DNA from: Candidatus Falkowbacteria bacterium
GTDB lineage: Bacteria; Patescibacteriota; Patescibacteriia; UBA11705; JABHMO01
Reading direction: 5' to 3'
Assembly (NCBI GenBank): GCA_016214755.1
Contig: JACRNX010000019.1
Span: forward strand, 1-55,539
Length of the DNA stretch: 55,539 nucleotides
The position numbers were made by a program, and so were the translations under genes. Numbering within the stretch: position 1 is the first letter of the stretch; each line of letters begins with the position of its first letter. The notes below the pieces were generated by a model that saw only the letters and a list, made by a program, of their open reading frames with translations, searched no databases and was not told where the DNA came from. Below, in pieces: positions 704 to 53,529 of the stretch.

Positions 704-2686
704 TTATGGCTTCACGGTTCCGTCGCCGGGCGCGAATTTATCTTGCTCGAGCGCGGTCGTTAAAATATTTTTCGTCCGCGTGATGATGGCGTCGGTCAGC
801 GCGTCTTTGGCGATTAACGTAGCGGTGCCAGTCAGTTCCAGTAATTTACCGACGTCTTCATTTTTAGGATAGACGACGAGGCTGAAATTGGCATGCGCTT
901 CTTTGATTGATTCTGGCAGGCGATTAATTTTCCAAGTTACTTTTCGCGTTATTTCGTCGAAGAAAATATCGCCGGCGCCCGCTTTTTTTTCTTCCATCCA
1001 GCTAACGTAATTTGGCAAGCTGGCGGAAACGCTAATATCTTTGATTTCGTGGATGTCGTTGGATAAATCCCAAAAAATTTTCAATTTAGTGGGTTGTTCC
1101 GCTTGGAAAGGCAAGGGTCCGCTGCCAATCGGCGTGCCGTCGTCGAAATAGTAAAGCGCCTTGACTCCGAGATTGGCGCTTGAGCTTAAAGTTAAGATCA
1201 CCGGACTACTTTTTATCGCCGGCACGCTTTCCGTGCTGGTGGAAATATCAAGTTCCGAGCGCGCCTCGATTATCGTCTGATTCAAATCAGGCAGATTGGT
1301 CAGTTCTGAATACGTTTTGAGCGGCAGGGAAAAATCAATCGAGACGTCCCGCCCGGCGTTTAATTTTTTCAGTTCCGCGATTTGCGTTTCGTCCCAGAAT
1401 ATTTCCTTGCCCGTTTCAGTTTTTTTTATTTTTCCAAAATGTTTATCGTCAATTTTATTCCAATTGAAAATGTCCGCGCCGCTTATTTGCAACACTGTTT
1501 TCGCTTTCAGATTTTCAAAAACCGTCTGGCCGTTGTTTTTAATCACCAAAGAAAAAGTCAATTGGTCTCCCAAATTTATATTTCTGTTTTCCGTCGCTCC
1601 GTTTATGATAAGAAAAGTATTGAGCGGCTGGTCATTGATTTTGATTGAAAATTTTTCTTCTTTGATGATTATGTATTGCCCGGCCGCGTCGCTGGCGAGC
1701 AGTTGAACCAGAAAATTCTGCTCGCGTTCACTGTCCTTTGCGAAGCTGGTGGCCGCGGGAAAGACGCCTTCGATATTGATTTCTTTATTTTCCTCTCCGC
1801 CGGCCAGTTGATTAATGAGCCAGCCGCGATTATCTTCCGCGGCCGCCGGCTGAGCGAACGCGAATTGAAAATTTTTTGGATAAGTGAAAAGGATTTTTAT
1901 GTTTTTTAATATTTCGCTTTCTTCATTTTTTAATTTCGTCTTTATGTTGACTTTTTGTCCGAGAACGACATTAGCGGAAAAATGAAAAGCGAGATTCAGC
2001 CGCGGCGCTTCAAGCAGAACGCTGTACGTTGTTTCCTTGGAAAATTCGGAATTAAAATTTTCCGGCTTGAATATTAATTTGGCGGTCAGCGTTTGCGCGT
2101 CGCCCGGCGCGTCAATGATCCGGCCGGTGATTTTTAAAATTCCTTCTTGACCGGCTGCCAGTTCTCCGATCGAAAAACTGTGATTTTGAAGCGTTGGTTC
2201 AGCTTTTTCAATTATCAGGCCTTTGGGATATTGCAGGGACAAACGCGCGTTGGACAGTTTGAGCGCGCCTTGGTTTTTGTACGATATTTGATAATCAAAG
2301 GGTTCATTGACGCTGATTTTCTCCGGCGCCTGAATTTCAAGAAGCAGTTTCTCGCTTTGAAACGGCCTTTCACCCTGAAAATACAAAAAGCCGGCGGCCG
2401 CGGCGGCCAGCAGTAAAATGGAGAGGCCGAGCGCGAGAGCGAGCAGATATTGGCGATGGCGCGTCCGGCTTTTTTCAATCAAAATTTTTAAGGAAGAATT
2501 TTCGTCTTCCTTTTTTTTAGCGCCATCGGCGCTGATTTCCTGATTTTGATTTTCAGATTCCGTTTCCTCGTACAGCGTTATCAATTCTTGAATGGGATTT
2601 TCTGCCGGGGCCTTGATTTTATGCCGGCGGAATCGCAAAGAAAATCGCCGCTTATTTTGCATATGGGGCCTGTCGTCAAATGTCAT
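704..2686 (-). CDS. Membrane-anchored hypothetical protein with tandem Ig-like (DUF11-like) domains
   Basis: 660 aa; single TM helix (YLLALALGLSILLLAAAAAGFLYF) followed by repeated beta-rich YxNxG modules. Confidence 0.7.
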   Translation of the reverse strand: MTFDDRPHMQNKRRFSLRFRRHKIKAPAENPIQELITLYEETESENQNQEISADGAKKKEDENSSLKILIEKSRTRHRQYLLALALGLSILLLAAAAAGFLYFQGERPFQSEKLLLEIQAPEKISVNEPFDYQISYKNQGALKLSNARLSLQYPKGLIIEKAEPTLQNHSFSIGELAAGQEGILKITGRIIDAPGDAQTLTAKLIFKPENFNSEFSKETTYSVLLEAPRLNLAFHFSANVVLGQKVNIKTKLKNEESEILKNIKILFTYPKNFQFAFAQPAAAEDNRGWLINQLAGGEENKEINIEGVFPAATSFAKDSEREQNFLVQLLASDAAGQYIIIKEEKFSIKINDQPLNTFLIINGATENRNINLGDQLTFSLVIKNNGQTVFENLKAKTVLQISGADIFNWNKIDDKHFGKIKKTETGKEIFWDETQIAELKKLNAGRDVSIDFSLPLKTYSELTNLPDLNQTIIEARSELDISTSTESVPAIKSSPVILTLSSSANLGVKALYYFDDGTPIGSGPLPFQAEQPTKLKIFWDLSNDIHEIKDISVSASLPNYVSWMEEKKAGAGDIFFDEITRKVTWKINRLPESIKEAHANFSLVVYPKNEDVGKLLELTGTATLIAKDALTDAIITRTKNILTTALEQDKFAPGDGTVKP

Positions 2687-5220
2687 TCAGCGATGAAAGC
2701 GAGCAAAGCGTCGTCCGCGAGAGATGACTCGAGTTTTATTTGGTCAAAATGGTTTATGGCCGCGTGGCCGAAGGTTTTTGTCGCGCTATATCCTGTCGGC
2801 AAATTGATGGTAATATTGAATTTCGTGTTTTGAACGCCGGATTGTTTTTGCAGGAGAAAGGAATAAAATTCTGGATGTTTTTCGTTCGAGAAAATCGTTA
2901 ATTTTGATTTTTGGGCGGCGCTGAAGCGAAAAGGCAGGCGATATTTTATTATCAATTGTCGCTCTTCGCCAGAGTCAACCTGCAACCAGTTGCCGAAGAC
3001 GGTTTTATCGAATTCATTGTTTATTTGCGTCCCTGAAGTCGGATCAATCCATATCTTGCCTTGAATTCCGGCGAGCCATTCGTCTTCTTGCCAAGCGGTC
3101 TCGGGTTTTTCGAATTTGTTCGCCGGCACCGAGCTGTGGCCGGTAATTTCCAAAAGTTCGCTACCGGCCGGAGTGTAAATCCTCACGAAAGACAGGTTTG
3201 ATATTTTGCCGAATTGGTCGTTCGCGCTGCCCGTGTGTTTCCGGGAAATGGCGAGCGTGTTGATGATCGTTCCGTCGTCCGCGATATTGGAAACAAGATT
3301 AATGTTTTGCTCGATGAACGCATCGGTCTTTCCACCACCGATATTTGAACTTACGACGGCTAAGTAATCCCGTGAGCTATTAAGCATTTTCCCCGCCCAG
3401 CCGTAGCTGGCGATTTTTTCTTCAATCGCTTGATTGGCGAAATAGAGCTGAATGTCTTTTTCTGCCAGCCCTTTTTTCACGGCTTGAGCGATGGTGATGA
3501 TTGTTTTTTTGTCGGCGCCAAACAGTTTTTTCAAAAATTCAGGCGCTAAGTCGGCTAAAAGCTGTTTGGGTTTGGCCGTGTTTTTCAGCGCGCTGGTGGA
3601 TTTTTGAAGTTCGATGATGAAATTTTTCGCGTTCAGCGATTGGCCGTAGTCAGGCAAATTAATCGGGCCGATTATTTCCAAAATGGCGGGAATCAATGAC
3701 GCGTTCACGCTGATGACGCCGTCAACAGTCGGTCCGCCGGCGTTTTCGTAGAACCATTTAATTTTTTGGGCGGAAGAAGGGAAATCCGGCAGCCAGTTCG
3801 CGTCCTGCATTTCCCAAAGCGGATTAATGACGGTTAGGGGATAAGGCGCTTTCCGTTTCGCCAGCAAAGAACCTTGCAGGTCGTAACTGCCGCCGCTGGG
3901 AATTTCTATATTTTTTATTTCGCCGCGGTCAATGTCAACCAAGGCGAAACTGCCGATAAATCCGCCGGTGGCGCGGATTTCATTGTTGTTTTGAAAAACG
4001 AAAAGATACCGCCGTAAGTAGTCCGCCCCAAGGATTTCATTGATTGTTTTCGAGAGTTCGGAAAATTCCGTTAAATCATTCGCCAGGGACGAAAGATAAT
4101 TTTTAATTTGGCTGAATTGCGCGCGCTTGTTTTCCGGTAGCGCCTCTGGCCGGATTTTGTTCATAAGCGAATTGACGCTATTTACTTTTCCGGCGATTGA
4201 CGAAATGTCGCTTTCCGCGTTCGCTAAACGTTCAGTTAGTTTTTTATCCGACGATTTCAGCGCTTCGAACGCGTTGGTGATTTGCTGGCCAATGTCCGCC
4301 GCCGCCGCGCCGGCGTCAAGTAGGTACTCGGCGTCAGCTAAATTTGGTCCGGTTCGCGGAATGAGATTGATGAGAATTTTAAGTCCGGCGTTAATTTTAT
4401 CTAGTTCGTTTTCCGCTTCAAATAAATTTTTTTCAGCGGCCGCGAATTGTTCGCGCGCTTCGCCGGTCTTTTCGTCAAGAAGATTTTGGCTGGCGATTTT
4501 TATGTCGGCATACGCTTCGGTCGCGTAATTCACGATTTTTGCCTGTGAATTTTTCAATTCATGATAATAGCCAAAGGCCTTGATCGGCGCGATGCATAGG
4601 AGGAAACCAAACGTGTAAATAACGATTTTTTTTGGCCAATCGTATGGTAAATTTAAATGATAAAACCAAGGCGCCTTGGTGAATTGTTCGCCATGCTCGT
4701 CATAATGTCGTTTTGACGGAAGATGATTTAAAACAGCGATTCGCTCTTCGTGTCTGAAAATAACCGTCGGCCCCAGCTCTCCAGCGGCTTTGTGTTTCGG
4801 CTTTTCGTTCGCCATGGACTTGGACGAAGTGGGTAGTTCGCGGCCGCGCCGTCTGAGCAGTGAAAGGATTCTTTTCTTCTCTGCTTTTTCTTTCTGTTTT
4901 TTGGCGAGTTCGGTTAAATCCAAAACAAAAGAGGAATGGCTGGAGCGCGCGGTCGTTGGTTTGACGATAATGTCAGTGTGATGATGAGGATGTTTGACGC
5001 CGATGGTTTCGCCGGCCGGCAGGAGTTTCGCCAATTCCTTCATGACTGATTGCTCAAGTTCGCGATTGGTGTCTTTTTGATGATGGGCGAGGATGCCGTC
5101 TATTTCATGCTGGAGCAAACCAAAGGTGAGCGGCTCGTTCGGTTTTTGGTTTTCGCCGCTTCGCGCGTCGCGTTTATTGAGGCGGATGTTAGGCGTGGTT
5201 TTTTTTATTTTTTTATTCAT
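2683..5220 (-). CDS. DUF4012 domain-containing membrane protein
   Basis: YLFVFQNNNEIRATGGFIGS, DANWLPDFPSSA, NIGGGKTD motifs; lies beside glycosyltransferases. Confidence 0.85.
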   Translation of the reverse strand: MNKKIKKTTPNIRLNKRDARSGENQKPNEPLTFGLLQHEIDGILAHHQKDTNRELEQSVMKELAKLLPAGETIGVKHPHHHTDIIVKPTTARSSHSSFVLDLTELAKKQKEKAEKKRILSLLRRRGRELPTSSKSMANEKPKHKAAGELGPTVIFRHEERIAVLNHLPSKRHYDEHGEQFTKAPWFYHLNLPYDWPKKIVIYTFGFLLCIAPIKAFGYYHELKNSQAKIVNYATEAYADIKIASQNLLDEKTGEAREQFAAAEKNLFEAENELDKINAGLKILINLIPRTGPNLADAEYLLDAGAAAADIGQQITNAFEALKSSDKKLTERLANAESDISSIAGKVNSVNSLMNKIRPEALPENKRAQFSQIKNYLSSLANDLTEFSELSKTINEILGADYLRRYLFVFQNNNEIRATGGFIGSFALVDIDRGEIKNIEIPSGGSYDLQGSLLAKRKAPYPLTVINPLWEMQDANWLPDFPSSAQKIKWFYENAGGPTVDGVISVNASLIPAILEIIGPINLPDYGQSLNAKNFIIELQKSTSALKNTAKPKQLLADLAPEFLKKLFGADKKTIITIAQAVKKGLAEKDIQLYFANQAIEEKIASYGWAGKMLNSSRDYLAVVSSNIGGGKTDAFIEQNINLVSNIADDGTIINTLAISRKHTGSANDQFGKISNLSFVRIYTPAGSELLEITGHSSVPANKFEKPETAWQEDEWLAGIQGKIWIDPTSGTQINNEFDKTVFGNWLQVDSGEERQLIIKYRLPFRFSAAQKSKLTIFSNEKHPEFYSFLLQKQSGVQNTKFNITINLPTGYSATKTFGHAAINHFDQIKLESSLADDALLAFIAE

Positions 5221-8959: not shown

Positions 8960-9034
8960 TGGCTGGGGCGGCAGGATTCGAACCTGCGATAAGTGGATCC
9001 AAAGTCCACTGCCTTTCCACTTGGCGACGCCCCA
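8960..9034 (-). tRNA. tRNA-Gln(TTG)
   Basis: Cloverleaf; anticodon arm GTGGA-CTTTGGA-TCCAC; encoded CCA. Confidence 0.95.
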
Positions 9035-9104
9035 AACTTTCGCCAAAGGCGGAAGAAGATCCAAGTTTCAAGTTCAAAGTTTAAAAATCAAAGGTTAGAT
9101 CAAG

Positions 9105-9178
9105 TCGGAGCGGTAGGACTCGAACCTACGGCATCTTGCTCCCAAAGCAAGCGCGCTGCCGGACTGCGCCACGCTCCG
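9105..9178 (-). tRNA. tRNA-Pro(TGG)
   Basis: Arm CTTGC-TTTGGGA-GCAAG; GGTTCGAGTCC T-arm. Confidence 0.95.
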
Positions 9179-9227
9179 ATTGTTCGACTTCCAACTTCCT
9201 AGCTCCCATTTCCAACTTCCATTTTTG

Positions 9228-9300
9228 TGCCCCTAGGGGGAATCGAACCCGCCTCCTCCAGCTTGAAAGGCTGGCGACCTTGCCGTTAGTCTACAGGGGC
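9228..9300 (-). tRNA. tRNA-Glu(TTC)
   Basis: Arm CCAGC-CTTTCAA-GCTGG. Confidence 0.92.
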
Positions 9301-9343
9301 TACTTCCAATCTCCAACCTCCAACTTCTAACTTCTAATAATTG

Positions 9344-9417
9344 TGGACCCGCCGGGACTTGAACCCAGAACCTCTCGCGTATCAGACGAGCGCTCTATCC
9401 AATTGAGCTACGGATCC
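9344..9417 (-). tRNA. tRNA-Ile(GAT)
   Basis: Arm CTCGT-CTGATAC-GCGAG. Confidence 0.9.
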
Positions 9418-9430
9418 GACTGAATTTAAG

Positions 9431-9515
9431 AGGAAGGAGTGGGATTTGAACCCACGGAGGATTTCTCCCCAGTGGTTTTCAGGACCACCGCCTTAAGCCG
9501 CTCGGCCATCCTTCC
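9431..9515 (-). tRNA. tRNA-Ser(TGA)
   Basis: Long variable arm; arm GTGGT-CCTGAAA-ACCAC (C at position 33). Confidence 0.85.
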
Positions 9516-9537
9516 TTTTTCCTGAATAGAGCATTTG

Positions 9538-9622
9538 AGGAGAGGGTGGGATTTGAACCCACGGGAGCTTGCGCCCCGGCGATTTAGTAGACCGCCGTCA
9601 TAAGCCACTCGACCACCTCTCC
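9538..9622 (-). tRNA. tRNA-Ser(ACT)
   Basis: GGAGAGG acceptor, long variable arm; arm GCGGT-CTACTAA-ATCGC. Confidence 0.85.
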
Positions 9623-9677
9623 TTTGTGAAAAACGTACTCTAACCTCCAATCTCCAACCCCCCAACTTCCATTATTG

Positions 9678-9750
9678 TGCGTCTGGCGGGAATCGAACCC
9701 GCGGCCAACGGATTAAAAGTCCGCTGCTCTCCCAACTGAGCTACAGGCGC
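9678..9750 (-). tRNA. tRNA-Lys(TTT)
   Basis: Arm GCGGA-CTTTTAA-TCCGT. Confidence 0.95.
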
Positions 9751-12235: not shown

Positions 12236-12422
12236 AAATAATGGAAGTTAGAGGTTGGAGATTGGAGGTTAGATTAGAAATTGGAGATTAGAGTTGAATT
12301 GATTTAATATCTAATTAAATTTTCATTTTTCAAATCTCTAAAATTTTGACATTCAATCATTAGTCATTGGGCATTTATTAGGTTAATTAGATCAATTATG
12401 GACATCACATTATGAAAACGCA

Positions 12423-18710: not shown

Positions 18711-18807
18711 TAGTTAGGTGGTAGGTGGTAGGTTGTAGGGTGTAGAGATTTTTTGTAATCAAAATGTTCCGAGATTCTACTCACTACCCACTACCACCTA
18801 CACCCTG
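18711..18807. repeat. Inverted GTAG/CTAC heptamer pair around a short core
   Basis: (gtaggtg/gtaggtt/gtagggt)n-agattttttg...ttccgagat-(ctacNNN)n. Confidence 0.8.
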
Positions 18808-21254: not shown

Positions 21255-21983
21255 ATGCCGAAGCAGAAGATAGATTTGTTAAAAAAAACGCGGCCATGGT
21301 ACGTTGAATGGTGGGGAAAAATCATCCTCGCGTTTTTGGCGCTGTTTCTCGTTTTTTTGCCGTTTTATTTTTTCCAATTGTATAAAGTTTACAAGCAATT
21401 TAAATCCGGCGAATTTATCAGCGCGGAGGCGCTGGAAAAACAAGCGCCGTATAAAATGGCGTATTTCGTTGATTCAATGAGTCCATCTATAGGGGCGGAA
21501 GATGCGAAAATTACGATTGTCGAGTTTGGTGATTTTAATTGCTCGCGCACGAAAGAAGAAGCTGCGGTTCTAAAGCAAGTAGCCGCTGAATACAAGGATA
21601 AGATAAAAGTGTATTGGCGAAATTATCCTGTTTTCGCGGAAAGTTCCGCGGACCTGGCGCTGGCGTCAATTTGTGCGCATAAGCAAGGGATGTTTTGGCT
21701 GTTTCATGATTATTTGTTTCAGAATCAAGGCGATATCTCTGTCGAAAAGTTGAAGTCAGCGCCGACAGAGCTTGGCTTGGATAAAAAAAAGTTTGAATCA
21801 TGTCTGTCGAACCCGCTGACGCAGGCGCAAATCAAAAAAGATTATTACGCGGCGAAAGACGGCGAAGTGGCCGGCACACCGACGTTTTTTGTCAATGGAT
21901 TTAAACTCCAAGGCGCGATTCCAATCGAAACCTGGCGCGAAATAATTGATAAATTTATTCGGATCTACGAAAAAGATTTATGA
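21255..21983 (+). CDS. Membrane-anchored DsbA/thioredoxin-like protein
   Basis: ITIVEFGDFNCSRT and GVAGTPTFFVNG-like cis-Pro loop; N-terminal TM. Confidence 0.85.
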   Translation: MPKQKIDLLKKTRPWYVEWWGKIILAFLALFLVFLPFYFFQLYKVYKQFKSGEFISAEALEKQAPYKMAYFVDSMSPSIGAEDAKITIVEFGDFNCSRTKEEAAVLKQVAAEYKDKIKVYWRNYPVFAESSADLALASICAHKQGMFWLFHDYLFQNQGDISVEKLKSAPTELGLDKKKFESCLSNPLTQAQIKKDYYAAKDGEVAGTPTFFVNGFKLQGAIPIETWREIIDKFIRIYEKDL

Positions 21984-22537
21984 AAAAGATGATGGAAATT
22001 AGGATCCACGGACGGGGCGGCCAGGGAGCGGTGACGGCGGCGGAACTTTTGGCCATCGCCGCTTTTTGCGATGGGAAATTTTCCCAAGCGTTTCCTTCTT
22101 TCGGCGTGGAGCGGCGCGGCGCGCCGGTAATGGCGTTCTGTCGGATCGCCGAAACCCCGATTCGTCTGCGGGAGCAGATTTATTCGCCGGAATACGTGAT
22201 TATTCAGGACGCGAGTTTGGTCGTCTTCGATCCGCAAGTGCTGATTGGCATTGAGAAGTGCTACGCCGTGTTGATTAATTCGGAAAAAACGAACTGGCCG
22301 GAGATTAAAAATAAAAATATCGTTAACATACCGGCGACAAAAATCGCCATTGAAAAAATCGGCAAACCGTTTATCAATACTGCTTTAATCGGCGCGTTCG
22401 CGGGCATGACCGGGGCAGTCAGTTTAGCCGGGCTCACCCGCGCGGTAACGGAAAAATTCGGCGGCAAAGATAATAAAGTGGCAGAAAGCAACGTGGCGGC
22501 GATGGAGGAGGCGTATCGTCTGGTGAAAAAATCCTAA
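21980..22537 (+). CDS. porC: Pyruvate:ferredoxin oxidoreductase gamma subunit
   Basis: EIRIHGRGGQGAVT, FPSFGVERRGAPV. Confidence 0.93.
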   Translation: MKKMMEIRIHGRGGQGAVTAAELLAIAAFCDGKFSQAFPSFGVERRGAPVMAFCRIAETPIRLREQIYSPEYVIIQDASLVVFDPQVLIGIEKCYAVLINSEKTNWPEIKNKNIVNIPATKIAIEKIGKPFINTALIGAFAGMTGAVSLAGLTRAVTEKFGGKDNKVAESNVAAMEEAYRLVKKS

Positions 22538-22762
22538 ATTCGAGATCCTAATTTCTTGACAAATTCGAAATCCGAAATCCTAATTTCTAAACAAATCCTA
22601 AATTCTAAATTCGAAATCCTAAACAAATTCCAATTCCAAAATTATAATTTTACAAAGCATTCTATAAACTGTTTAAAATTTAGATATTGAAGAATTGAGA
22701 TTTGTTTAGAATTTCGATATTCGGATTTTTCCTAAAAATAGATATTGGAATTTAGAATTCTA
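22533..22762. repeat. Inverted heptamer array (CTAAATT/CGAAATC vs AATTTAG/GATATTG)
   Basis: Starts at the porC stop codon; related arrays at 28702-28842 and 37262-37366. Confidence 0.8.
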
Positions 22763-22790
22763 AGCTATATATTTTTACTTGAATTTATTT

Positions 22791-23060
22791 ATGAAAATAA
22801 ACCTCGCCGTCTCTCCCGGCACAACCAAAGATTGCAAAACCGGCAACTGGCGCGTGTATTATCCTTTGATTGACCATGAAAAATGCATTGCCTGCGGAAC
22901 TTGCGCTCGTGTTTGTCCGGAAGGTTGTGTTTTTCCCGTCAAAGACGAGAAGTCAAAAAAAATATATTTTGAAAAAGATTTAGATTATTGCAAAGGATGC
23001 GGCATCTGCGCGGAAGAATGTCTAGTTAAGGCGATTACTATGGAATTGGAGAGAAGATAG
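22791..23060 (+). CDS. porD: Pyruvate:ferredoxin oxidoreductase delta subunit
   Basis: KTGNWR followed by two CxxCxxCxxxC motifs. Confidence 0.9.
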   Translation: MKINLAVSPGTTKDCKTGNWRVYYPLIDHEKCIACGTCARVCPEGCVFPVKDEKSKKIYFEKDLDYCKGCGICAEECLVKAITMELERR

Positions 23061-23544
23061 GTTGTAGTGAGTAGGTTGTAGTGAGTAGATTAATTGAGAA
23101 GAACATTAATAATATGGAATTTAAGAGTGCTATCAATTCATATAAAGATTTGATAGTTTGGCAAAAATCCATGGAACTGATAGCAGAAGTTTATAAATTA
23201 ACAAAGCAATATCCTCGTGAGGAGTTGTACATTTTAGCTCGCGAAACCAAACGGTCCGCCATATCCATACCGTCTAATATCGCAGAGGGAAGCCGGCGAA
23301 GCACTAAAAAAGATTACAGGCAGTTTCTATTAATGGCATATGCTTCGGATGCGGAGCTGGAGACTCAAATTGAAATTGCGAAGCGTGTTTTAAATGATTG
23401 CGTTTTGGATTTTACAAAAATTGATTCTTTATTGAAAGAAGTTATGCGAATGTTGAATAAGTTGACGCATGAATTGGAGCAATATTAAAGTGAGTAGTGG
23501 TAGTCTTATATAACTACAACCTACTCACTACAAACTACCACCTA
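23058..23544. mobile_element. Heptamer-inverted-repeat-bounded cassette carrying a four-helix-bundle gene
   Basis: 21-bp perfect inverted repeat ttgtagtgagtaggttgtagt (23062-23082) / actacaacctactcactacaa (23513-23533), between porD and porA; mobility is inferred. Confidence 0.6.
23114..23488 (+). CDS. Four helix bundle protein (23S rRNA IVP family)
   Basis: SYKDLIVWQKSM, YPREELY, RSAISIPSNIAEG, ELETQIEIA. Confidence 0.92.
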   Translation: MEFKSAINSYKDLIVWQKSMELIAEVYKLTKQYPREELYILARETKRSAISIPSNIAEGSRRSTKKDYRQFLLMAYASDAELETQIEIAKRVLNDCVLDFTKIDSLLKEVMRMLNKLTHELEQY

Positions 23545-23583
23545 AAATTAGATTTTGCGCTTTAAACTTGTAACTTTGAGTTT

Positions 23584-24720
23584 ATGAGAAAGTGCATCGA
23601 GGGATCATTAGCAGTCGCGGAGGCGATAAAATTATGTCGTCCGGCGGTGGTGGCGGCTTATCCGATTACCCCGCAGACGCATATCGTTGAAGAACTCGCC
23701 AAGTTTAAAGCAGAAGGCGAAGCGGATTTTGAATTTGTCCGCGCGGAAAGCGAATTTAGCGCCGCGTCCATTGTTCTCGGCGCTTCCGCGTCCGGCGTTC
23801 GAACATACACCGCGTCCAGCTCGCAAGGATTGTTGTTAATGACCGAAGTTTTATTCACCATCGCCGGCCTGCGTCTGCCCGTGGTTTTGACTTGCGCCAA
23901 CCGCGCGGTGTCAGCGCCAATCAACATTTGGAATGACCAGCAGGACGCGATGACAATTCGCGACGCCGGCTGGATAATGCTATTCGCGGAAGACAATCAG
24001 GAAGCAGTGGATTTTCATTTGCTGGCGTACAAAATCAGCGAGCAAGTAAAAATTCCGGTTATGGTTAACATGGATGGCTTTGTTTTGACGCACACTTTTG
24101 AGCCGGTTGATATTCCATCGGAAAAAGAGGTAGCGTGTTTTTTGCCGAATTACGCGCCAGCGGCCGGCCAGATTTTAAACGTGAAAAGTCCAGTCAGTTT
24201 GGGTTGTTTCGCCACGCCGGCCGATTACTTAGAGATTCGGCAAGATTTATTTAATGATTTAGTCAGTTCAATGGAAATAATAAAAAAAGAATTGGGAAAC
24301 TTTAAAAAAACTTTCAAACGCGGCAATTCAGAGTTAGTTGAATATTATGGTGATAAAGACGCCGAGATTGTTTTCGCGGCCATGGGTTCAATCGTGGGAA
24401 CAATCAAAGACGCGGTGGATGAACTGAACGCGGCCGGACAAAAAGCAGGGGTGATAAAGATAAAATGTTTTCGGCCGTTTCCGAAAGAAGAAGTAGTGAG
24501 TCAATTATCAAAAGCAAAATACGCGGCGGTGATTGATAAAAATATTTCGTTGGGACAAGAGGGGATTTTAGCGACAGAGATTAAAGCATTAGTTAGAAAC
24601 GACAAAAAAGTCCAGTCGTTTATCGTCGGTCTCGGCGGACGCGACGTGACACGTCAGCATATTTTCGATATATATAAAAAAGTTCAGGATAATAAGGACG
24701 GCGTTTTGTTCGTTGGATAG
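23584..24720 (+). CDS. porA: Pyruvate:ferredoxin oxidoreductase alpha subunit
   Basis: AYPITPQT, ESEFSA, SSQGLLLM, NRAVSAPINIWNDQQD. Confidence 0.95.
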   Translation: MRKCIEGSLAVAEAIKLCRPAVVAAYPITPQTHIVEELAKFKAEGEADFEFVRAESEFSAASIVLGASASGVRTYTASSSQGLLLMTEVLFTIAGLRLPVVLTCANRAVSAPINIWNDQQDAMTIRDAGWIMLFAEDNQEAVDFHLLAYKISEQVKIPVMVNMDGFVLTHTFEPVDIPSEKEVACFLPNYAPAAGQILNVKSPVSLGCFATPADYLEIRQDLFNDLVSSMEIIKKELGNFKKTFKRGNSELVEYYGDKDAEIVFAAMGSIVGTIKDAVDELNAAGQKAGVIKIKCFRPFPKEEVVSQLSKAKYAAVIDKNISLGQEGILATEIKALVRNDKKVQSFIVGLGGRDVTRQHIFDIYKKVQDNKDGVLFVG

Positions 24721-24750
24721 AAGAATATACGGCCAAGATAAAAAATAAAT

Positions 24751-24822
24751 TTGTCACCCTTCGAGAACCTCAGGGTGACAAAAAGACGGCCTTTGTCATG
24801 CTGAGGCTCTCGAAGCATGACA
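24751..24822. repeat. GTCA-type REP doublet
   Basis: gtcacccttcgagaacctcagggtgac and gtcatgctgaggctctcgaagcatgac. Confidence 0.8.
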
Positions 24823-24838
24823 GGCAATAAACATCATT

Positions 24839-26692
24839 ATGAAATTATCAATAAAAAAAGTATTTATCATTTGTTCCGCGCTTGTTGTTTTGTCGCAGAT
24901 TTTTAGTTTAAGCTATTTTGTTTTAGTTCCAGCAGTATTCGCGGCGGACGAGGGCGCGCCTGATATTACCGGCGCTATTATTCGCGTACCGTTTTGGGAT
25001 TTGCCGGCAGAATTAAAAACATTTAGTTTCGAGCCATGCCCGGAAGAGTGTAAAGCAACTGATCCGTCGGATGTCTGTCAAACGAAACAAAGCAAGACTT
25101 GTTTGAACATTCCTTGGATCGCGATGTACATCGGCGCCGCTTATCGTTATGCGGTTGTCTTGGGTTCGATTTTAGCCGTGTTTATGATTATGCTCGGCGG
25201 AGTGGTATATTCACTCGCCGGCATAAATCAGAATATGGTAAAAACCGGCCGAGATTTTATCAGCGGCGCGGTCATTGGTTTGATTTTACTTTTGGGCTCG
25301 TATATTCTTTTAAATACCATTAATCCGAATTTCATCTCGTTGAAGCCGGTTAAAATTGAAGTGGTGAAGGAGCAAGGAATGATCAAAGAACTGACTTGCG
25401 ATGAAGCGGAGAAGCAGGGCTATACCGTGGATACACCGAATTGGAAAACAAATAATACTTGCGGTCAGGAATTTGATTTAAAGTACGCTGGCTCTGATAC
25501 TACCAAGCAAGTCGCGGGTCAAAAATGCACGAGTACAAGTTGCGGCAACACCGGACTCGCGTGCATTAAAATGGTTGAGACAGGAGATTATCAATGCAAA
25601 TCAGTGCTGATGTACGGAGAAATTATTTATCCGGGTTTTTCTACGCTTCTTGGTTGCGGGCAATTAAAAGAAGCAGTAGCTACAAAGGGGTTTTATGTTG
25701 ATGAATTAATGTTAAAGAGATTTGATATTGAAGGTGATTCGATCGGTATGACTTCTATAATTCCCATCGGACAAAATAAATTCTCATATTATATTGAGAA
25801 AAAAGACATTGTTGACATGACGGGTCCTAATGTGTCCAAATTACAGCCGAGCGATAGGGTTTATCTTTGGATTTCAGTTAATGATGCTGATTTTGGCTGG
25901 CTGGTAGCGACGATAGACGATGATTTTATCGCGGCGCCGTCAATAAAAAATTATACTGGTAAAAATGAAGTTGGGCCAATCGCGATTTGCAATGGAAATA
26001 TGTACAGCGCTTCCTTGGACGCAAGTAATAAAAAGTTGACCTATTTTTCAATTTCAGCATTGACGTGGGACCAATTGAAATCAGCTCCGAACGGTATTCA
26101 CTGGGATATTAATATCACGAAAGATTTTTTTGATTGTGAGGGAGGGGCAACTAAGGATGCTTTGAAAGTTGATTGTGACATTGCCAAGAATGCTGGCACT
26201 GGAAGCAAGGGAGAGAAAGGCGATGTTTGTAAAACAAATTCTGATTGCAAAACAGAATCAGGATTGATTTGCAACAGCGTGACAGGAGTTTGCAGTGTAA
26301 AAGGGCAAACGGATGCTCTATGTTCAATAAACGGTGATTGTGAAGTGGGTTATTATTGCGATAAAACAGGTTCAAAAAATGTTTGCGAATTAGCTGGTCT
26401 TGAAAAAATGAAGTGTGATCCTAGTAACGATAGCTCATGCGGCGCCGAGTTAATATGCACTGATGAGGATGATTTTGCTGATCAACCAATTTGTGTTCAA
26501 GCACCAAAAGCTTGTACTGATGAAGAAGATAATAGCGACTGCAAAAATGTAGATGGATGGTTGGATGGTGATTGTGATGGCGGTTCCTGTGACTGTGATT
26601 TGGATAGTGACTGCGATGAAACTAAGGGATATATCTGCGCGGGTAATCCAACAAGTTTGTACAATAAAAATGCTTCTTGCGTACTAAAATGA
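24839..26692 (+). CDS. CPR pilin-like (TrbC/VirB2-type) protein with a Cys-rich C-terminal extension
   Basis: Signal peptide; IPWIAMYI...LAVFMIMLGG...GAVIGLILLLGSYILLNTINP; many CxxxxDC modules. Confidence 0.7.
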   Translation: MKLSIKKVFIICSALVVLSQIFSLSYFVLVPAVFAADEGAPDITGAIIRVPFWDLPAELKTFSFEPCPEECKATDPSDVCQTKQSKTCLNIPWIAMYIGAAYRYAVVLGSILAVFMIMLGGVVYSLAGINQNMVKTGRDFISGAVIGLILLLGSYILLNTINPNFISLKPVKIEVVKEQGMIKELTCDEAEKQGYTVDTPNWKTNNTCGQEFDLKYAGSDTTKQVAGQKCTSTSCGNTGLACIKMVETGDYQCKSVLMYGEIIYPGFSTLLGCGQLKEAVATKGFYVDELMLKRFDIEGDSIGMTSIIPIGQNKFSYYIEKKDIVDMTGPNVSKLQPSDRVYLWISVNDADFGWLVATIDDDFIAAPSIKNYTGKNEVGPIAICNGNMYSASLDASNKKLTYFSISALTWDQLKSAPNGIHWDINITKDFFDCEGGATKDALKVDCDIAKNAGTGSKGEKGDVCKTNSDCKTESGLICNSVTGVCSVKGQTDALCSINGDCEVGYYCDKTGSKNVCELAGLEKMKCDPSNDSSCGAELICTDEDDFADQPICVQAPKACTDEEDNSDCKNVDGWLDGDCDGGSCDCDLDSDCDETKGYICAGNPTSLYNKNASCVLK

Positions 26693-32212: not shown

Positions 32213-32411
32213 GTTAGCAGGTTGTAGTGAGTAGGTTGTAGTGGGTAGGTTGTAGTGAGTAGGTTGTAGAGATTTTTTGACGTAAAAAATAACCCTTTCA
32301 AGACAGCTCGCTTCACAGTTCCAATTTTTGTCGTCTCTATAAAACTACTCACTACCCCCTACCACCTACAAACTGTTTCGTTTTTTCATATATATGTTAA
32401 TCTGTACATCT
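32213..32411. repeat. Heptamer-bounded element, copy 1 (rplS leader)
   Basis: 75-bp core 32270-32344 is 69/75 identical to 39696-39770. Confidence 0.85.
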
Positions 32412-33768: not shown

Positions 33769-33860
33769 GTAGAGAATCTAGAAAGTAGAAAATAGAATCT
33801 AGAATTTTTAAAAGCACCCTCTAACATACTTCTACATTCTACATTCTACTTTCTATTTTC
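33769..33860. repeat. TAGAAAA/TAGAATC inverted heptamer array
   Basis: Includes the RluA-family gene stop codon; same family at 11058-11098 and 46085-46180. Confidence 0.75.
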
Positions 33861-34905
33861 TGGTTGTTAATTTTGAAATAAAGTCAAAAAATTTTTCGGG
33901 CATGGCTGATTCGTATGTCTTTTCGACACCATTGGAATCAATAAAACTTAATTTCGTCGCGTGCAGCAATATCCTTTTAACTTTGGTTTTGAGTTTAAAG
34001 TCGCGCGTCGAATAGAGCGAATCGCCGACAATCGGATGATTGATGGCGAAAAAATGGACGCGGATTTGGTTTGTCCTGCCGGTCAATGGTCGTGCCCGCA
34101 CTAAGGTGTAATTGATAAATCGCCGTTCGACTTCGTATTCTGTTACCGCCGGCTTTCCCTTGCCCGAACCCTTTGGATGGCTGGCCATTTGCCCTTCTCC
34201 GCTCTTCCGGCTGATTTCGAATTCAATCGCGCCGGCGTCACGTTCTAATTCTCCGTGGATAAGCGCGGCGTATTCTTTTTTAACTTGTTTGGTTTGGAAT
34301 TGTTTTTTAAAATAATCGAACGCCGCTTGATTTCGAGCGATGAGCATTACGCCGGAAACATCTCTGTCGAGGCGATGCACAATGCCCGGCCGAAAAGTTA
34401 AATCAGCGCGCGCCAATGATTCGCTGTCAGCGATTTTTTTTATTTCCGGAAATTTTTTCGCTAACCAATCAGCCAGCGTCGGCGCGGTTGAATTTTCAGT
34501 GGCGTGCACTAAAAGTCCGGCTGGTTTTTCTACGATAAGATAGGCGGCCGTTTTCGCGATTATTTTCGGCGTTCGTTCGTCCGATTTGACGAACAATTTA
34601 ATTAGAAAATTAAGAACGCGCGCGAACCAATTTATTTTTTGTTGATTATCCGCGGCGTTTTTCTGTTCCGTAGGGAACGCATATATGCGTTCCCTACTCG
34701 GCGATTGGGCGCTGATTTTTTCAATTTCAACATTATCGCCGATTTTCAAAAAGCGATGCGTTTTCGGCTTTTCCGCGTTGACTGTCACCAATCCGGCTTT
34801 AATCATTTTTTGAATTTGACTGCGCGATTGGCCCATCTGTTCAACTAGAAATTTATCCAGCCGCTGGCCATTATTTTTTTCTTCAACTTTAAAACAGTTT
34901 GTCAT
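33853..34905 (-). CDS. RluA/RluD-family pseudouridine synthase
   Basis: S4 domain RLDKFL; PGIVHRLDRDVSG, TGRTNQIRVH, HPIVGDSLY. Confidence 0.93.
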   Translation of the reverse strand: MTNCFKVEEKNNGQRLDKFLVEQMGQSRSQIQKMIKAGLVTVNAEKPKTHRFLKIGDNVEIEKISAQSPSRERIYAFPTEQKNAADNQQKINWFARVLNFLIKLFVKSDERTPKIIAKTAAYLIVEKPAGLLVHATENSTAPTLADWLAKKFPEIKKIADSESLARADLTFRPGIVHRLDRDVSGVMLIARNQAAFDYFKKQFQTKQVKKEYAALIHGELERDAGAIEFEISRKSGEGQMASHPKGSGKGKPAVTEYEVERRFINYTLVRARPLTGRTNQIRVHFFAINHPIVGDSLYSTRDFKLKTKVKRILLHATKLSFIDSNGVEKTYESAMPEKFFDFISKLTTRK

Positions 34906-39628: not shown

Positions 39629-39820
39629 AGATGTACGGATTAACATACATACGAAAAAACGAAACAGGTTGTAGGTTGTAGTGAGTAGGTTGTAGAGATT
39701 TTTTGACGTAAAAAGTAACCCTTCCGAGATAGCTCGCTTCACAATTCCAATTTTTGTCGTCTCTATGAAACTACCCCCTACCCCCTACCCCCTACCCCCT
39801 ACCCCCTACAACCTACCATC
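39629..39820. repeat. Heptamer-bounded element, copy 2
   Basis: Flank + GTAG heptamers + 75-bp core + (ctacccc)n. Confidence 0.85.
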
Positions 39821-39848
39821 TGCCACATAATTTATATTTTTTCATTAT

Positions 39849-41432: not shown

Positions 41433-41596
41433 TACGGATAAATACGGATTACGGATTATTTACGGATATACGGATAATACAAGATGTACAGATTATTACA
41501 GATGTACAGATGAGATCTAAATTTTGAATTTCGATTTATTGTAACTCGTCTCACAAATTACGATTTACGAATTACGATTTACGAATTACGGATTAT
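41433..41596. repeat. ACGGATT/GATGTACA and TTACGAA tandem arrays
   Basis: The first part matches 39589-39640; the TTACGA(A/T) family also occurs at 44017-44078 and 47440-47470. Confidence 0.7.
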
Positions 41597-42566: not shown

Positions 42567-42732
42567 TGAACTTTTCCTCCTGCGTCCAAAGGCGCTGTTT
42601 GTTGTCAATGACCCGATTACGACAGTATATGTTAAATAACAAAAAATGTCAAGGCGAATCACGCCCGTTGTTTGCCATCTCCGCTAATTTACTTTATAAT
42701 AGGTAAGGAACGCATATATGCGTTCCCTGCTT

Positions 42733-44022
42733 ATGGCGATAAAAATGGTTTCAATAAATGATTTTAAGGCGTATCTCGGACAAGAGGTCTTAATCAAGGG
42801 CTGGGTTTATAATTTCCGCTCATCGGGAAAAATCGCGTTTCTGCAAATTCGCGATGGTTCTGGTTTTGTTCAGGCGGTTGCCGCTAAAGATTTAGTTGAC
42901 GAAAAAAGTTGGCAAATGATTGAGGAAATGACGATTGAAAGTTCAGTTGAGATTGTCGGAACAGTGTCCAAGCATCCGAAAAAAGAGGAATATGAATTGC
43001 AGGTCAAAACATTGCAGTTCGTCCAAAAGGCCGAGGAGTATCCGATTGGCAAAAAAGAGCATGGCCCGGATTTTTTGATGGAACATCGCCATTTATGGCT
43101 GCGCGCGCCAAAACAGTGGGCAATTCAGCGCGTGCGGAATACGATTATCAACGCGATGTATGAGTTTTTTAACGCCGAAGGATTCACAAAAATTGATTCG
43201 CCGATTTTAACGCCCAGCGCTTGCGAGGGCACGACTGAACTTTTTGAGATGGACTATTTTGATATCGGCAAAGCGTATCTGACGCAGAGCGGACAATTAT
43301 ATCTTGAAGCGGCGATTGCTTCGTTCGGCAAGGTGTTTGACTTCGGACCGGTTTTTCGCGCGGAGAAATCAAAGACGCGGCGACATCTGACCGAGTTTTG
43401 GATGCTCGACGCGGAAATGGCCCTTTTTGACCATAAAATGAATTTGGATTTGCAGGAGCGTTTAATTGAGTTTGTCGTTGGAAAAGTTTTATCGTTAAAT
43501 CAAAATGAATTAATGCTTTTAGAGCGCGACATTGAGCCGCTGAAAAAAATAAAAGCGCCGTTTTCGCGTTTGACATACAAAGAAGCGATAGAAAAATTGC
43601 GTCAGCTTGGGTCAGATATCAAAGAAGGGGAGGATTTGGGCAATGATGATGAGACGTTGATTATGCGGGACGAAGCAAAGCCGCTGTTCGTTGAAATGTG
43701 GCCGCTAAAGATAAAAGCGTTTTACATGAAACGCGAGAATGATTTGGCGTTGTGCGCGGACTTGATCGCGCCAGAGGGTCATGGCGAAATTATCGGCGGC
43801 AGTCAGCGCGAAGATGATTTCAGCGAGTTGATCAAACGGCTGGAAGAAAAGAATTTAGCGCGCGAGCCGCTGGAATGGTATTTGGATTTGCGGAAATACG
43901 GCAGCGCGCCGCATTCTGGTTTCGGCGTCGGACTGGAGCGATTGGTCGGCTGGCTCTGCGGGGTGCACCATGTGCGCGAAACGATTCCGTTTCCGAGGAC
44001 GTTGAATAGAATTTATCCGTAA
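42733..44022 (+). CDS. asnS: Asparagine--tRNA ligase
   Basis: YLTQSGQLYLE, FRAEKSKTRRHLTEFWM, EIIGGSQRE, PHSGFGVGLER. Confidence 0.95.
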   Translation: MAIKMVSINDFKAYLGQEVLIKGWVYNFRSSGKIAFLQIRDGSGFVQAVAAKDLVDEKSWQMIEEMTIESSVEIVGTVSKHPKKEEYELQVKTLQFVQKAEEYPIGKKEHGPDFLMEHRHLWLRAPKQWAIQRVRNTIINAMYEFFNAEGFTKIDSPILTPSACEGTTELFEMDYFDIGKAYLTQSGQLYLEAAIASFGKVFDFGPVFRAEKSKTRRHLTEFWMLDAEMALFDHKMNLDLQERLIEFVVGKVLSLNQNELMLLERDIEPLKKIKAPFSRLTYKEAIEKLRQLGSDIKEGEDLGNDDETLIMRDEAKPLFVEMWPLKIKAFYMKRENDLALCADLIAPEGHGEIIGGSQREDDFSELIKRLEEKNLAREPLEWYLDLRKYGSAPHSGFGVGLERLVGWLCGVHHVRETIPFPRTLNRIYP

Positions 44023-44078: not shown

Positions 44079-44302
44079 GTCATTCCGACCGAGACGATAC
44101 TGCTTTAGCGAGAGAGGCGAGTGGAGGAATCTGTGACTAAAATGGATGAGAGATCCCTCGACTCCGTTTCGCTCCGCTCGGGATGATAAAAAAGGGAGTT
44201 TATCCTGAGCTCGCCCCGCCATGGCGGGGTGAAGCAATCTCAGATTCTATAGTCTCGAGATTGCTTCGTCGCCCGACGTGCGTCGGGGCTCCTCGCAATG
44301 AC
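44079..44302. repeat. GTCA-type REP-like cluster
   Basis: gtcattccgaccgag...gaggaatct / agatccctcgact...gggatga and gaagcaatctc / gagattgcttcgtcgc...ctcctcgcaatgac; related at 50036-50132 and 53410-53450. Confidence 0.8.
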
Positions 44303-44367
44303 GTTTAGACGGGATTTAGAAACTGAACATTAAGAATTTTATTTTATGTTTTTATATTTTTAATTTT

Positions 44368-45795: not shown

Positions 45796-46095
45796 ATGCG
45801 ATTGTCGAGTTTGCAAAAATATATTTTACTTCAATGCTACCATCGCATCGGCGCGCGGATGGGCCGCGATGGTTTAGTTAAGTTTTACGAGGACAAAAGA
45901 ATTCCGCGAAAAGCGCTGCGGCAAAAAATCATCACCCGGAGCATCGAAAGTTTGATTGATAAAGAATTATTGGTCGGCTACGGACTAAGGACGCCGCACA
46001 AATGGTTTATCAAAGAAATCCGCTTGACCGGCAAAGGCGAAAAGATGGGCAGAAAACTGCTGGGCGAGCAGATGCGGCTACCGTTTAGAAAGTAG
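45796..46095 (+). CDS. Small basic hypothetical protein, winged-helix-like
   Basis: LSSLQKYIL...ITRSIESLIDKELL...IRLTGKG. Confidence 0.6.
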   Translation: MRLSSLQKYILLQCYHRIGARMGRDGLVKFYEDKRIPRKALRQKIITRSIESLIDKELLVGYGLRTPHKWFIKEIRLTGKGEKMGRKLLGEQMRLPFRK

Positions 46096-46208
46096 AAAGT
46101 AGAAAATAGAAGTTTGTTAGACGAATCGTCTATATCCTGATTTTCACATTCTAGATTCTATTTTCTATTTTCTAGATTCTGCTAAGTTATTCATTTTTAA
46201 TTAACTAA

Positions 46209-49994: not shown

Positions 49995-50287
49995 ACGCAA
50001 AGAAAGCAAGTGTTGATTAAAAGTAGAGCGACACCGTCATTGCGAGGAGCCTCGACGTATGTCGAGGTGACGAAGCAATCTCGAGATTATAGACGATGAG
50101 ATTGCTTCGTCGCCGCGGCTCCTCGCAATGACAAAAGGGTGGGCGGAATTTATACTGAGCGGAGCCGAAGTGCCTCAGACGCCGTGGTATGCATGATATA
50201 CAGTTAAGAACAAGAGATTAAAGACAGAAATAAAAAATGATAGAAAAGCAAACGTTGATTGTAAATAACGCTGATTATTTGTATCGA

Positions 50288-51635: not shown

Positions 51636-51752
51636 TCCTTCGAGGCTCGTTCTGACTTACGTCAGAACTCGCACCTCAGGATGACAATTAGATATTGGTC
51701 GGACGAGAAGTTTATCCTGAGCGACCCCGCATTTTGCGGGGGAGTCGAAGGA

Positions 51753-51771
51753 AGTCCGGCCCCCGCTACCA
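51753..51771 (+). repeat. Duplicated 19-bp tRNA-fMet 3' end
   Basis: agtccggcccccgctacca, identical to 51617-51635. Confidence 0.85.
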
Positions 51772-53395: not shown

Positions 53396-53529
53396 AAAGA
53401 ATAAAATTTGAGATTGCTTCACCTCCGCAGAGCGGAGGGTTCGCAATGACATATCAAAAAAAGGGAGCCACGCTCCCCTTTCTTTTTTATAAAAAATGGT
53501 AGGATAACAAAAGGTAAGAAGGAGGAAAA

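Follow-up and report, generated by a model that had tools for sequence, protein, structure and literature searches.

A heptamer-armed cassette carrying a four-helix-bundle gene in the por operon of a Candidatus Falkowbacteria bacterium, and related operon cassettes in other lineages

The closest described relatives of the element reported here are inserts in bacterial ribosomal RNA (rRNA) genes. Coxiella burnetii's 23S rRNA intervening sequence (IVS), in the portion of its description available (PMC4990558), combines a length of ~430-490 nt and a terminal-repeat stem of ~25-28 bp with a single PF05635 (S23p/IVP) open reading frame (ORF) in the loop; the ORF runs in sense within the host transcript, and the sporadic distribution of the IVS suggests horizontal gain. 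Insertion sequences with 23S_rRNA_IVP ORFs have also been described from 16S and 23S rRNA genes of the candidate phyla radiation, with ORF-containing and ORF-less inserts at the same sites (PMC11270868, in part). Here we describe a cassette of ~485 nt that resembles the Coxiella IVS in these respects and shares its protein family and host radiation with the latter inserts. It occupies positions 23058-23544 of a 55,539-nt stretch of DNA (the window), which is contig C1 (GenBank JACRNX010000019.1) of assembly GCA_016214755.1 from a Candidatus Falkowbacteria bacterium (genome G000; 1.09 Mb, 71 contigs, 44% G+C, 95% complete). Unlike the rRNA IVSs, the cassette lies between the protein genes porD and porA and not in an rRNA helix, its arms are made of cargo-specific heptamer words, and many gene-less copies accompany it. 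The available parts of the candidate phyla report concern rRNA genes only and mention neither operon cassettes, nor heptamer arms, nor cargo of the GxxExxY family. The cassette belongs to a cross-lineage family of small IVS-like cassettes living in operons, and we lean modestly towards the view that it is a mobile IVS-type element whose arms are putative cognate sites of its own protein and which has gene-less derivatives.

The host operon encodes pyruvate:ferredoxin oxidoreductase and has the order porC, porD, a 124-aa ORF, porA, a 617-aa cysteine-rich ORF and porB. The cassette fills the porD-porA junction, and its cargo gene, the 124-aa ORF, is co-oriented with the operon. The parts of the cassette and its neighbours are as follows.

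21980-22537, plus strand: porC (ORF list, profile matches)
22791-23060, plus strand: porD, delta/ferredoxin subunit of pyruvate:ferredoxin oxidoreductase (Fer4 families, ORF)
23058-23088, plus strand: 5' arm, 2.2 copies of the 14-mer TAGGTTGTAGTGAG, equivalent to TAG-phased heptamers, type-A words (TRF period 14, 100% matches; inverted repeat)
23114-23488, plus strand: cargo gene for a 124-aa predicted four-helix-bundle protein, PF05635/TIGR02436 subfamily A (profile matches; PDB 2gsc, 7.8e-20)
23489-23529, plus strand: predicted local hairpin that joins the beginning of the 3' arm to a short half-arm of G type (23489-23503) immediately behind the cargo stop codon (fold -17.4 kcal/mol, z -3.88)
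23513-23540, plus strand: 3' arm, CTA-phased heptamers, complement of the 5' arm (inverted repeat of 25 nt, 96%; TRF period 7)
23584-24720, plus strand: porA, alpha subunit, downstream of the cassette (POR_N, PFOR_II)

Positions 23058-23088 pair with 23513-23537 over 25 nt with 96% complementarity, and the arms are 430 nt apart. Apart from one mismatch the pairing is complete, with a perfect run of 21 nt, and this run is the 21-bp perfect inverted repeat that the preliminary description placed around a gene of the IVS protein (IVP) family. The stop codon of porD (TAG, 23058-23060) is the first word of the 5' arm. Because TAG recurs every 7 nt, at offsets 0, 7, 14, 21 and 28, this arm sets stops in all three frames, as had been claimed, whereas the 3' arm has zero stops in any frame. 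The cargo ORF is assigned by profile to the PF05635/TIGR02436 ('23S rRNA IVS protein') family: it matches PF05635 at 2.8e-31 (108.3 bits, cut-off 33.8) over model positions 1-106 of 106 and TIGR02436 at 1e-29 (102.9 bits, cut-off 24). When species-representative genomes were scanned, Falkowbacteria metagenome-assembled genomes were among those with the most similar proteins. The ORF also matches the solved chains 2gsc_A (7.8e-20) and 2rld (0.0016); each of these PDB entries has 5 chains, a count that may point to an oligomer.

The predicted RNA fold of 23050-23550 has a minimum free energy of -126.4 kcal/mol, compared with -105.2 kcal/mol for shuffled sequences (z -3.24), and contains a 20-bp long-range closing stem. 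The cassette therefore has the complementary long-stem termini of an IVS (25 nt at 96%, 20-bp predicted stem). The hairpin at 23489-23529 would be an alternative to this stem, and its half-arm starts with AGTGAGTAG (9 nt, 23489-23497), a repeat of 23080-23088. No terminator-like site was found in the cassette; the region 21900-23700 holds one (inside porD, minus strand), against 2.4 expected, and its seven promoter-like sites are within chance (4.5 +/- 1.8). The Rfam scan of the window found no rRNA. The feature as a whole is confirmed as a heptamer-armed four-helix-bundle gene cassette, in which two inverted arms of four to five heptamer words surround one small gene in sense orientation, exactly in a stop-start junction.

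The same packaging recurs elsewhere in the genome. Genome-wide collection bore out the proposed tie between arrays and IVP genes: all five PF05635 genes above the cut-off in G000 lie between inverted arrays, each pair with its own word family. Among 1093 genes, taken from crude longest-ORF calls made within our scripts, these five rank 6th, 7th, 9th, 10th and 19th for complementarity between the upstream and downstream flanks, and their scores of 35-50 all exceed the 99th percentile of the null (29). The other high-ranking genes are insertion sequence (IS) transposases with ordinary terminal repeats or housekeeping genes situated between two complete hairpins that belong to the same word family. 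The sole GxxExxY gene of G000 (PF13366/TIGR04256), which is split over two contig ends and has apt-like and MTAP-like neighbours, is likewise enclosed by inverted arrays (1/1).

To follow the insertion site among relatives, we compared 96 porD-porA junctions (70 distinct sequences) from 106 loci, which comprise 26 related genomes and 80 metagenome contigs. The filled/empty polymorphism anticipated at orthologous junctions is present, with tight, gene-less, IVP and GxxExxY states. The gap is at most 24 nt at 40 of the 96 junctions; for example, the G008 junction is tight (4-nt gap, or 1 nt by another measure), and the junction of G012, from the same genus, holds an IVP cassette. Gene-less inverted arrays of 75-130 nt occur at several junctions (e.g. 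L015, L018, L074 and L075). IVP cassettes are found at five distinct junctions (L011, L025, L065, L008 and L051), represent three subfamilies (TIGR02436 1.7e-16 to 4.2e-34) and have inverted-repeat scores of 37-79. GxxExxY cassettes are found at two (L016, score 71; L014, score 40), with a degraded remnant of one at L013. Nine junction inserts of other genes (a GNAT protein, two peptidyl-prolyl isomerases, a leucine-rich-repeat protein and five unknowns) score only 11-19, indicating that arms go with IVP and GxxExxY cargo and that ordinary inserts are armless. Thus, one junction has been colonised repeatedly, and relatives differ at the DNA level by gain, replacement and loss of the unit.

These comparisons bear on the possibility that the inserts are old, vertically inherited and in decay, so that relatives differ by loss and the likeness of words reflects shared descent, with no current mobility or recognition. 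The IVP copies of G000 are divergent, those at the G000 and G012 junctions are 57% identical compared with 71% for PorA, and L013 is a degraded remnant, all of which would suit decay. We nevertheless regard this explanation as quite unlikely, because three cargo types occupy one junction within one bacterial family, the IVPs of L025 and L065, which have arm words in common, are 66% identical whereas their PorA proteins are only 58% identical, one gene-less family has nine copies at 90-95% identity, and core words are kept across class-level divergence while other positions vary.

Two DNA runs were the only sequencing runs found to contain the stretch 21980-24720. A joint 23011->23650 in their contigs (shorter side 20 letters, depth 4.9) was considered as an empty allele but not counted, its probable source being a different organism whose porD-porA junction is tight. 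Two further observations concern the por operon: an IVP gene is placed after porA in L027 (G017), and the 617-aa ORF at 24839-26692, a cysteine-rich, signal-anchored protein without a Pfam match, is a second interruption of the operon, between porA and porB.

The arms also recur in other lineages. Subfamilies A and B, when aligned together, proved too diverse to search genomes with, so the scan used subfamily A alone, and 79 of 80 loci were usable; these are mostly from Patescibacteria, with some labelled Gammaproteobacteria, Omnitrophota, Planctomycetia and Chromatiaceae. The median inverted-repeat score of their flanks is 25, compared with 15 for mismatched pairs, and 21 of the 79 exceed the 99th percentile of the null. 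Lag 7 gives the best self-match in 52/79 upstream and 35/79 downstream flanks, compared with 13/79 gene middles and 15/152 far flanks, and TAG density is 0.061 per nt upstream of the genes and 0.008 in far flanks. A class sample of 151 genomes supplied 29 subfamily-B loci, of which 26 were used, and 30 GxxExxY loci, of which 25 were used; the five GxxExxY loci excluded were four situated in frame within longer ORFs (559-924 codons) and one whose flank was short. Both sets are packaged alike, and 11 of the 25 GxxExxY loci exceed the 99th and 18 the 95th percentile of the null.

Each cargo type, whether four-helix-bundle (A, B1 and B2) or GxxExxY nuclease fold, has its own arm vocabulary. When the 5-mer profiles of the two arms were classified by leave-one-out nearest centroid (79 type A, 14 B1, 12 B2 and 25 GxxExxY), the words gave the right cargo type for 124 of 130 cassettes, a figure inflated by the relatedness of cassettes, compared with 49.5 on average and 63 at most over 200 permutations of the labels. 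Type-A arms are TAG-phased, type-B1 arms have the form AAATYCT ... AAACAAAT, type-B2 arms contain CAAAAGT-like words, and GxxExxY arms contain ACGAAT, CACAGAT or CACTAAT-like words. Since the B1, B2 and GxxExxY cassettes were drawn from the same genomes, host base composition does not explain the match between word and cargo. From this co-variation we infer that the proteins may bind the words.

The GxxExxY domains found in frame inside ORFs of 559-924 codons (L231, L232, L235 and L239 in G114, G030, G004 and G125, respectively) suggest that the cassette or its gene is also embedded in large genes. Subfamily-A matches occur in open frames of 428-515 aa, two in G073 and one in G121.

Gene-less arrays are far more abundant than filled cassettes. 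Arrays with a period of 7, 8, 9 or 14 were counted in over 20 spacers of the window (the preliminary description gave more than 15). Genome-wide, 238 inverted repeats score at least 16, compared with 4 in a Markov shuffle, and the best self-match lag is 7 in 115 of them. Self-match in intergenic DNA peaks at lags 7, 14 and 21 (0.326, 0.309 and 0.294, against a background of ~0.283), while coding DNA shows period 3 only. Four TAGs at 7-nt spacing occur at 175 loci in G000 and at none in the shuffle. Gene-less hairpins with cargo-type words are approximately 10 times as numerous as filled cassettes and use the same cargo-specific words, which, together with the degraded GxxExxY remnant at L013, agrees with the suggestion that empty pairs are cargo-less derivatives. 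The window contains the following examples.

22600-22728, plus strand: gene-less hairpin with type-B1 words AAATYCT ... AAACAAAT in the porC-porD spacer (arms 22600-22636 and 22692-22728, loop 55 nt)
18715-18800, no strand assigned: gene-less hairpin of type A, TAGGTGG ... CTACCCA, in the spacer that separates the genes for RNase J and a solute-binding protein
32219-32390, no strand assigned: one copy of a gene-less element of type A that is dispersed in the genome and has a conserved core of ~85 nt between GTAGGTT arms (9 genome copies at 90-95% identity)
39666-39830, no strand assigned: second window copy of the GTAGGTT-armed gene-less type-A element, core 91% identical (genome comparison)
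46087-46180, plus strand: gene-less type-A hairpin TAGAAAG / TTCTATT, the 5' arm of which includes the stop codon of the 45796 ORF (arrays, inverted repeats)
33773-33861, minus strand: gene-less hairpin AGTAGAA / AGATTCT, from the stop codon of an RluA-type gene to gmk (arrays, sequence)
41433-41595, no strand assigned: gene-less arrays of the GxxExxY-type words TACGGAT, TACAGAT and TTACGAA, directly after a stop codon (arrays; word type)

Judged by their words, the porC-porD hairpin is a gene-less B1-type element and the TACGGAT, TACAGAT and TTACGAA arrays are of GxxExxY type. Summed word depth in the source metagenome is 1900-3900 across the B1-type array (22532-22715) and ~30 in the flanking genes, so that near-identical array sequence is common to many other loci or organisms of the community. 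Copies of the GTAGGTT element are also present on contigs C63, C35, C25 (two copies), C29 and C54. Its ~85-nt core, which may be a small RNA, a promoter or a remnant, gave no Rfam hit (the lowest E value, 0.12, was to a miRNA model without relation to it) and matched nothing in the collected loci that would mark it as a deletion remnant of an IVP gene.

One side of the GTAGGTT element usually adjoins a TACGGAT array and the string ACGAAAAAACGAAAC. Some arrays stand in other arrangements. Nine clustered tRNA genes (8963-9750, minus strand) have GGAAGTT/GGAGATT heptamer arrays in the spaces between them; these arrays share one orientation and lack a partner arm nearby, their inverted counterpart being ~3 kb away at 12248-12293. 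At C10:1277-1651 of G000, rpsS (S19) has a TTACGNA array upstream and its complement downstream, neither with a local partner, so that G-type words loop a housekeeping gene. An unrelated, GC-rich palindromic repeat is also dispersed in the window (24721-24838, 44238-44367, 49995-50287, 53396-53529 and 51650-51770), with strings such as GTCATTGCGAGGAGC ... GCAATCTC and CCCTTCGA ... CTCAGGGTGACA, and is sometimes located inside heptamer hairpins of relatives (L026, L027, L038 and L039).

The arrays are closely fitted to the ends of upstream genes. As the preliminary description stated, arrays contain or adjoin the stop codons of porC, porD, two class-II aminoacyl-tRNA synthetase genes (42718-44022 and 44368-45726, there called asnS and aspS), scpB, the 45796 ORF and the RluA-type gene (33853-34905); the porC-porD spacer array, for instance, begins at the porC stop (22535-22537). 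Of 49 co-directional period-7 hairpins in the genome, 12 have a 5' arm that overlaps or touches the stop codon upstream, and in 20 the distance is no more than 5 nt. These 20 stops consist of 9 TAG, 11 TAA and 0 TGA, compared with 188 TAG, 479 TAA and 207 TGA genome-wide, a bias that fits an array supplying the stop. Stop trinucleotides are richer in the 5' arm in 59 of 74 hairpins and in the 3' arm in 13, a count that a few abundant word families may in part drive and that is not taken as one of independent events. The accompanying claim that the right arm ends shortly before an ATG holds in part: the gap is at most 15 nt in 24 of the 49 hairpins but 46 nt at the 23058-23544 cassette.

At the level of whole genomes, arrays occur almost only where such a gene is present. 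We scored phased-TAG arrays (at least 5 matches) across the 150 other genomes of the class sample. Of the 104 that have an IVP gene of subfamily A or B, 61 contain them, compared with 1 of the 46 that have none. GAT-phased arrays are present in 20 of 40 genomes with a GxxExxY gene and in 19 of 110 without.

A single-copy gene flanked by its own repeat, many gene-less intergenic inverted-repeat doublets and genome-level co-occurrence of the two recall the REPIN/RAYT system, as described in the sections available of PMC3116915 and PMC3337134. We therefore considered whether the hairpins are of the repetitive extragenic palindromic (REP)/REPIN type and are moved by RAYT-like Y1 transposases of the IS200/IS605 type, with the four-helix-bundle genes as passive passengers. 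G000 contains seven Y1_Tnp matches and carries more arrays (318 matches) than any other of the 151 genomes, arrays are commoner among IVP-positive genomes when Y1 is also present (41/58 compared with 20/46), and the GTAG found in many type-A words is the tag of one REP superfamily in the accessible part of PMC3733652. Set against this, the arrays were found in none of 21 genomes with a Y1 transposase and no IVP gene but in 20 of the 46 with an IVP gene and no Y1, around the Y1 gene at C2:59-487 there is an ordinary inverted repeat of 19 nt in place of heptamer arrays, and arm words vary with cargo type. We consider a Y1-driven origin improbable. What is found here is gene-less doublets that co-occur with a gene, with IVP replacing RAYT, and no heptamer repeats flanking that Y1 gene on C2; compared with the REPIN/RAYT system as it is presented in those sections, the cassette gene is a four-helix bundle or of PD-(D/E)XK fold instead of Y1, the repeat consists of tandem heptamers instead of a single conserved palindrome, and the arrays track IVP genes and not Y1_Tnp. 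The seven Y1_Tnp (IS200/IS605-type) matches of G000 (C2:98-460, C45:11518-11871 and five more) are among the highest numbers of the 151 genomes, and many Y1 proteins of the class have 200-260 aa and match the C-terminal two thirds of the model only.

The length of the arms is restricted. Exact 7-nt TAG runs of 3, 4, 5, 6, 7 and 8 words number 32, 82, 70, 13, 5 and 3 in G000, peaking at four to five words instead of decaying steadily, and the shuffle has none of more than 2. In the 79 type-A cassettes, the longest runs of 3, 4, 5, 6 and 7 words number 12, 12, 13, 3 and 1, with a drop after 5. Degenerate, mostly non-coding tandem repeats could in principle be replication-slippage microsatellites of AT-rich spacers that adjoin small genes by chance. 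This seems to us highly implausible in view of the peak in run length, the excess of inverted pairs (238 compared with 4 in the shuffle), the correspondence of words with cargo and the lack of arrays in genomes without the genes (1/46). The STRR (short tandemly repeated repetitive) sequences of heterocystous cyanobacteria are degenerate 7-nt tandem repeats in intergenic DNA, like the arrays here. We know of no described link of STRR repeats to a gene family.

The peak at four to five words may correspond to a pentameric reader. Avd of the diversity-generating retroelements (DGRs), which has the same fold family as the cargo, is a pentamer that binds structured RNA, and distal DGR sequences pair and loop out the template (bioRxiv 2023.10.23.563531, in the part available). 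Unlike the DGR setting, the cassette has no reverse transcriptase or template repeat nearby, its neighbours being por genes. Identity of the cargo with Avd itself was considered and rejected (NF033474, 25.3 bits against a cut-off of 80; PF22296, 24.4 against 40). The small GIY-YIG nuclease Ssn and its NTS/SRM repeats provide another parallel of a small nuclease gene tied to a multi-copy cognate repeat around genes; according to the available portion of PMC11893778, they differ in nuclease fold and repeat architecture, and Ssn repeats are not gene-enclosing heptamer arrays.

The preliminary inference of an mRNA-level intervening or mobile cassette family is partly supported, and a further question is whether the arms act as RNA or as DNA. 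The arrays may be host RNA elements, selected as long mRNA stems (RNase III sites, stabilisers or insulators) that separate cistrons in the manner of those around 16S/23S rRNA, with small genes residing in the loops and expressed from the processed RNA. Several observations are in keeping with this: the 20-bp closing stem beats shuffled sequences (z -3.24), G000 has an RNase III gene, some housekeeping genes, such as rpsS, also have one arm on either side, and RNase III cuts the stem of the Coxiella IVS (PMC4990558, in part), so that excision of the cassette RNA by this enzyme is plausible. Furthermore, the cargo gene runs in the direction of its upstream neighbour in 95 of the 101 cases that could be called and of its downstream neighbour in 82 of 94, compared with 503 of 729 spacers that are co-directional in G000, and thus probably relies on operon transcription. 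However, the arms carry no wobble signature. Sense-strand G.U-type and A.C-type mismatches number 63 and 57 in the 81 cassettes counted of 130, and 31 and 33 in 43 gene-less hairpins, with no excess in either set, and transversions dominate among arm mismatches. In addition, divergent and convergent spacers account for 17 of 66 hairpins. The arms thus resemble arrays of words preserved at the level of DNA or protein recognition, and not an RNA stem conserved by base pairing. Given also that words follow cargo type and that only 1 of 46 IVP-lacking genomes of the class has arrays, which would be unexpected for a general host function, we judge a host RNA element to be unlikely.

We accordingly return to the mobile IVS-type cassette. 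On this reading, a selfish insertable cassette, built like an ORF-bearing 23S rRNA IVS, would have been placed between protein genes. Its words would be putative cognate binding sites of the encoded protein, a four-helix-bundle pentamer that may read about five of them, and recognition of the words might maintain or spread the cassette and its gene-less derivatives, as RAYTs do for REPINs. In the operon transcript the arms may pair and loop out the cargo, and cutting by RNase III, as in rRNA IVSs, would let the operon tolerate the insert. The nine copies of the GTAGGTT element at 90-95% identity represent recent spread of the gene-less form.

Several points weigh against this reading. The five IVP genes of G000 are divergent (9-57% identity), so that no recent copying of a filled cassette is seen. 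The cassette contains no transposase or recombinase. No clear target-site duplication was found at its ends, the 9-nt direct repeat AGTGAGTAG belonging to the array, and the comparison of a filled (L011) with an empty (L012) junction gave no clear duplication either. The contig data of two DNA runs contained no clean empty allele. No relative closer than 78% PorA identity was recovered in the genome and metagenome scan, which puts within-species gain or loss out of view, and the 40 genomes searched included no same-genus relative of G000. B1-type and some G-type arrays have no matching gene in the 95%-complete, 71-contig assembly. As for the statistics, the subfamily-A loci were collected by a single peptide pattern in species-representative genomes, and co-inheritance of gene and arms could yield part of the word/cargo signal. 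The genome-level comparisons of genomes with and without the genes treat related genomes as independent, so that p-values are overstated, and their counts are not type-for-type specific, as cargo types co-occur and the TAG pattern also matches B1 right arms.

In the literature searched, we found no published account of operon cassettes, word vocabularies or genome-level dependence of this kind; in the parts of PMC4990558 and PMC11270868 that were available, IVP ORFs lie inside rRNA genes only. The PF05635/TIGR02436 and GxxExxY families are large, widespread and of unknown function, and the rRNA intervening sequences from which the PF05635 family takes its name have been unexplained since the 1990s. 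The co-travel of gene and repeat, the genome-level dependence, the agreement of four to five words with five chains and the repeated colonisation of one junction yield a concrete hypothesis of binding and mobility. We tentatively put forward a broader version, which we hold to be possible rather than probable: IVP four-helix-bundle and GxxExxY proteins would recognise heptamer words by their sequence, with a pentamer of the four-helix-bundle protein taking up about five words of single-stranded nucleic acid, and each protein would maintain or spread its own hairpin-armed cassette and the corresponding gene-less hairpins, forming a new class of bacterial mobile elements parallel to REPIN/RAYT. 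For the organism, the cassettes constitute a large share of the intergenic DNA of a reduced genome (175 phased-TAG loci in 1.09 Mb). They are also a likely cause of assembly breaks in such genomes, because the Logan contigs of the two DNA runs, both from one study, break at arrays. If true, the reading of IVP and GxxExxY proteins as word readers would also account for the 23S rRNA intervening sequences and for the excess of 7-nt repeats between bacterial genes.

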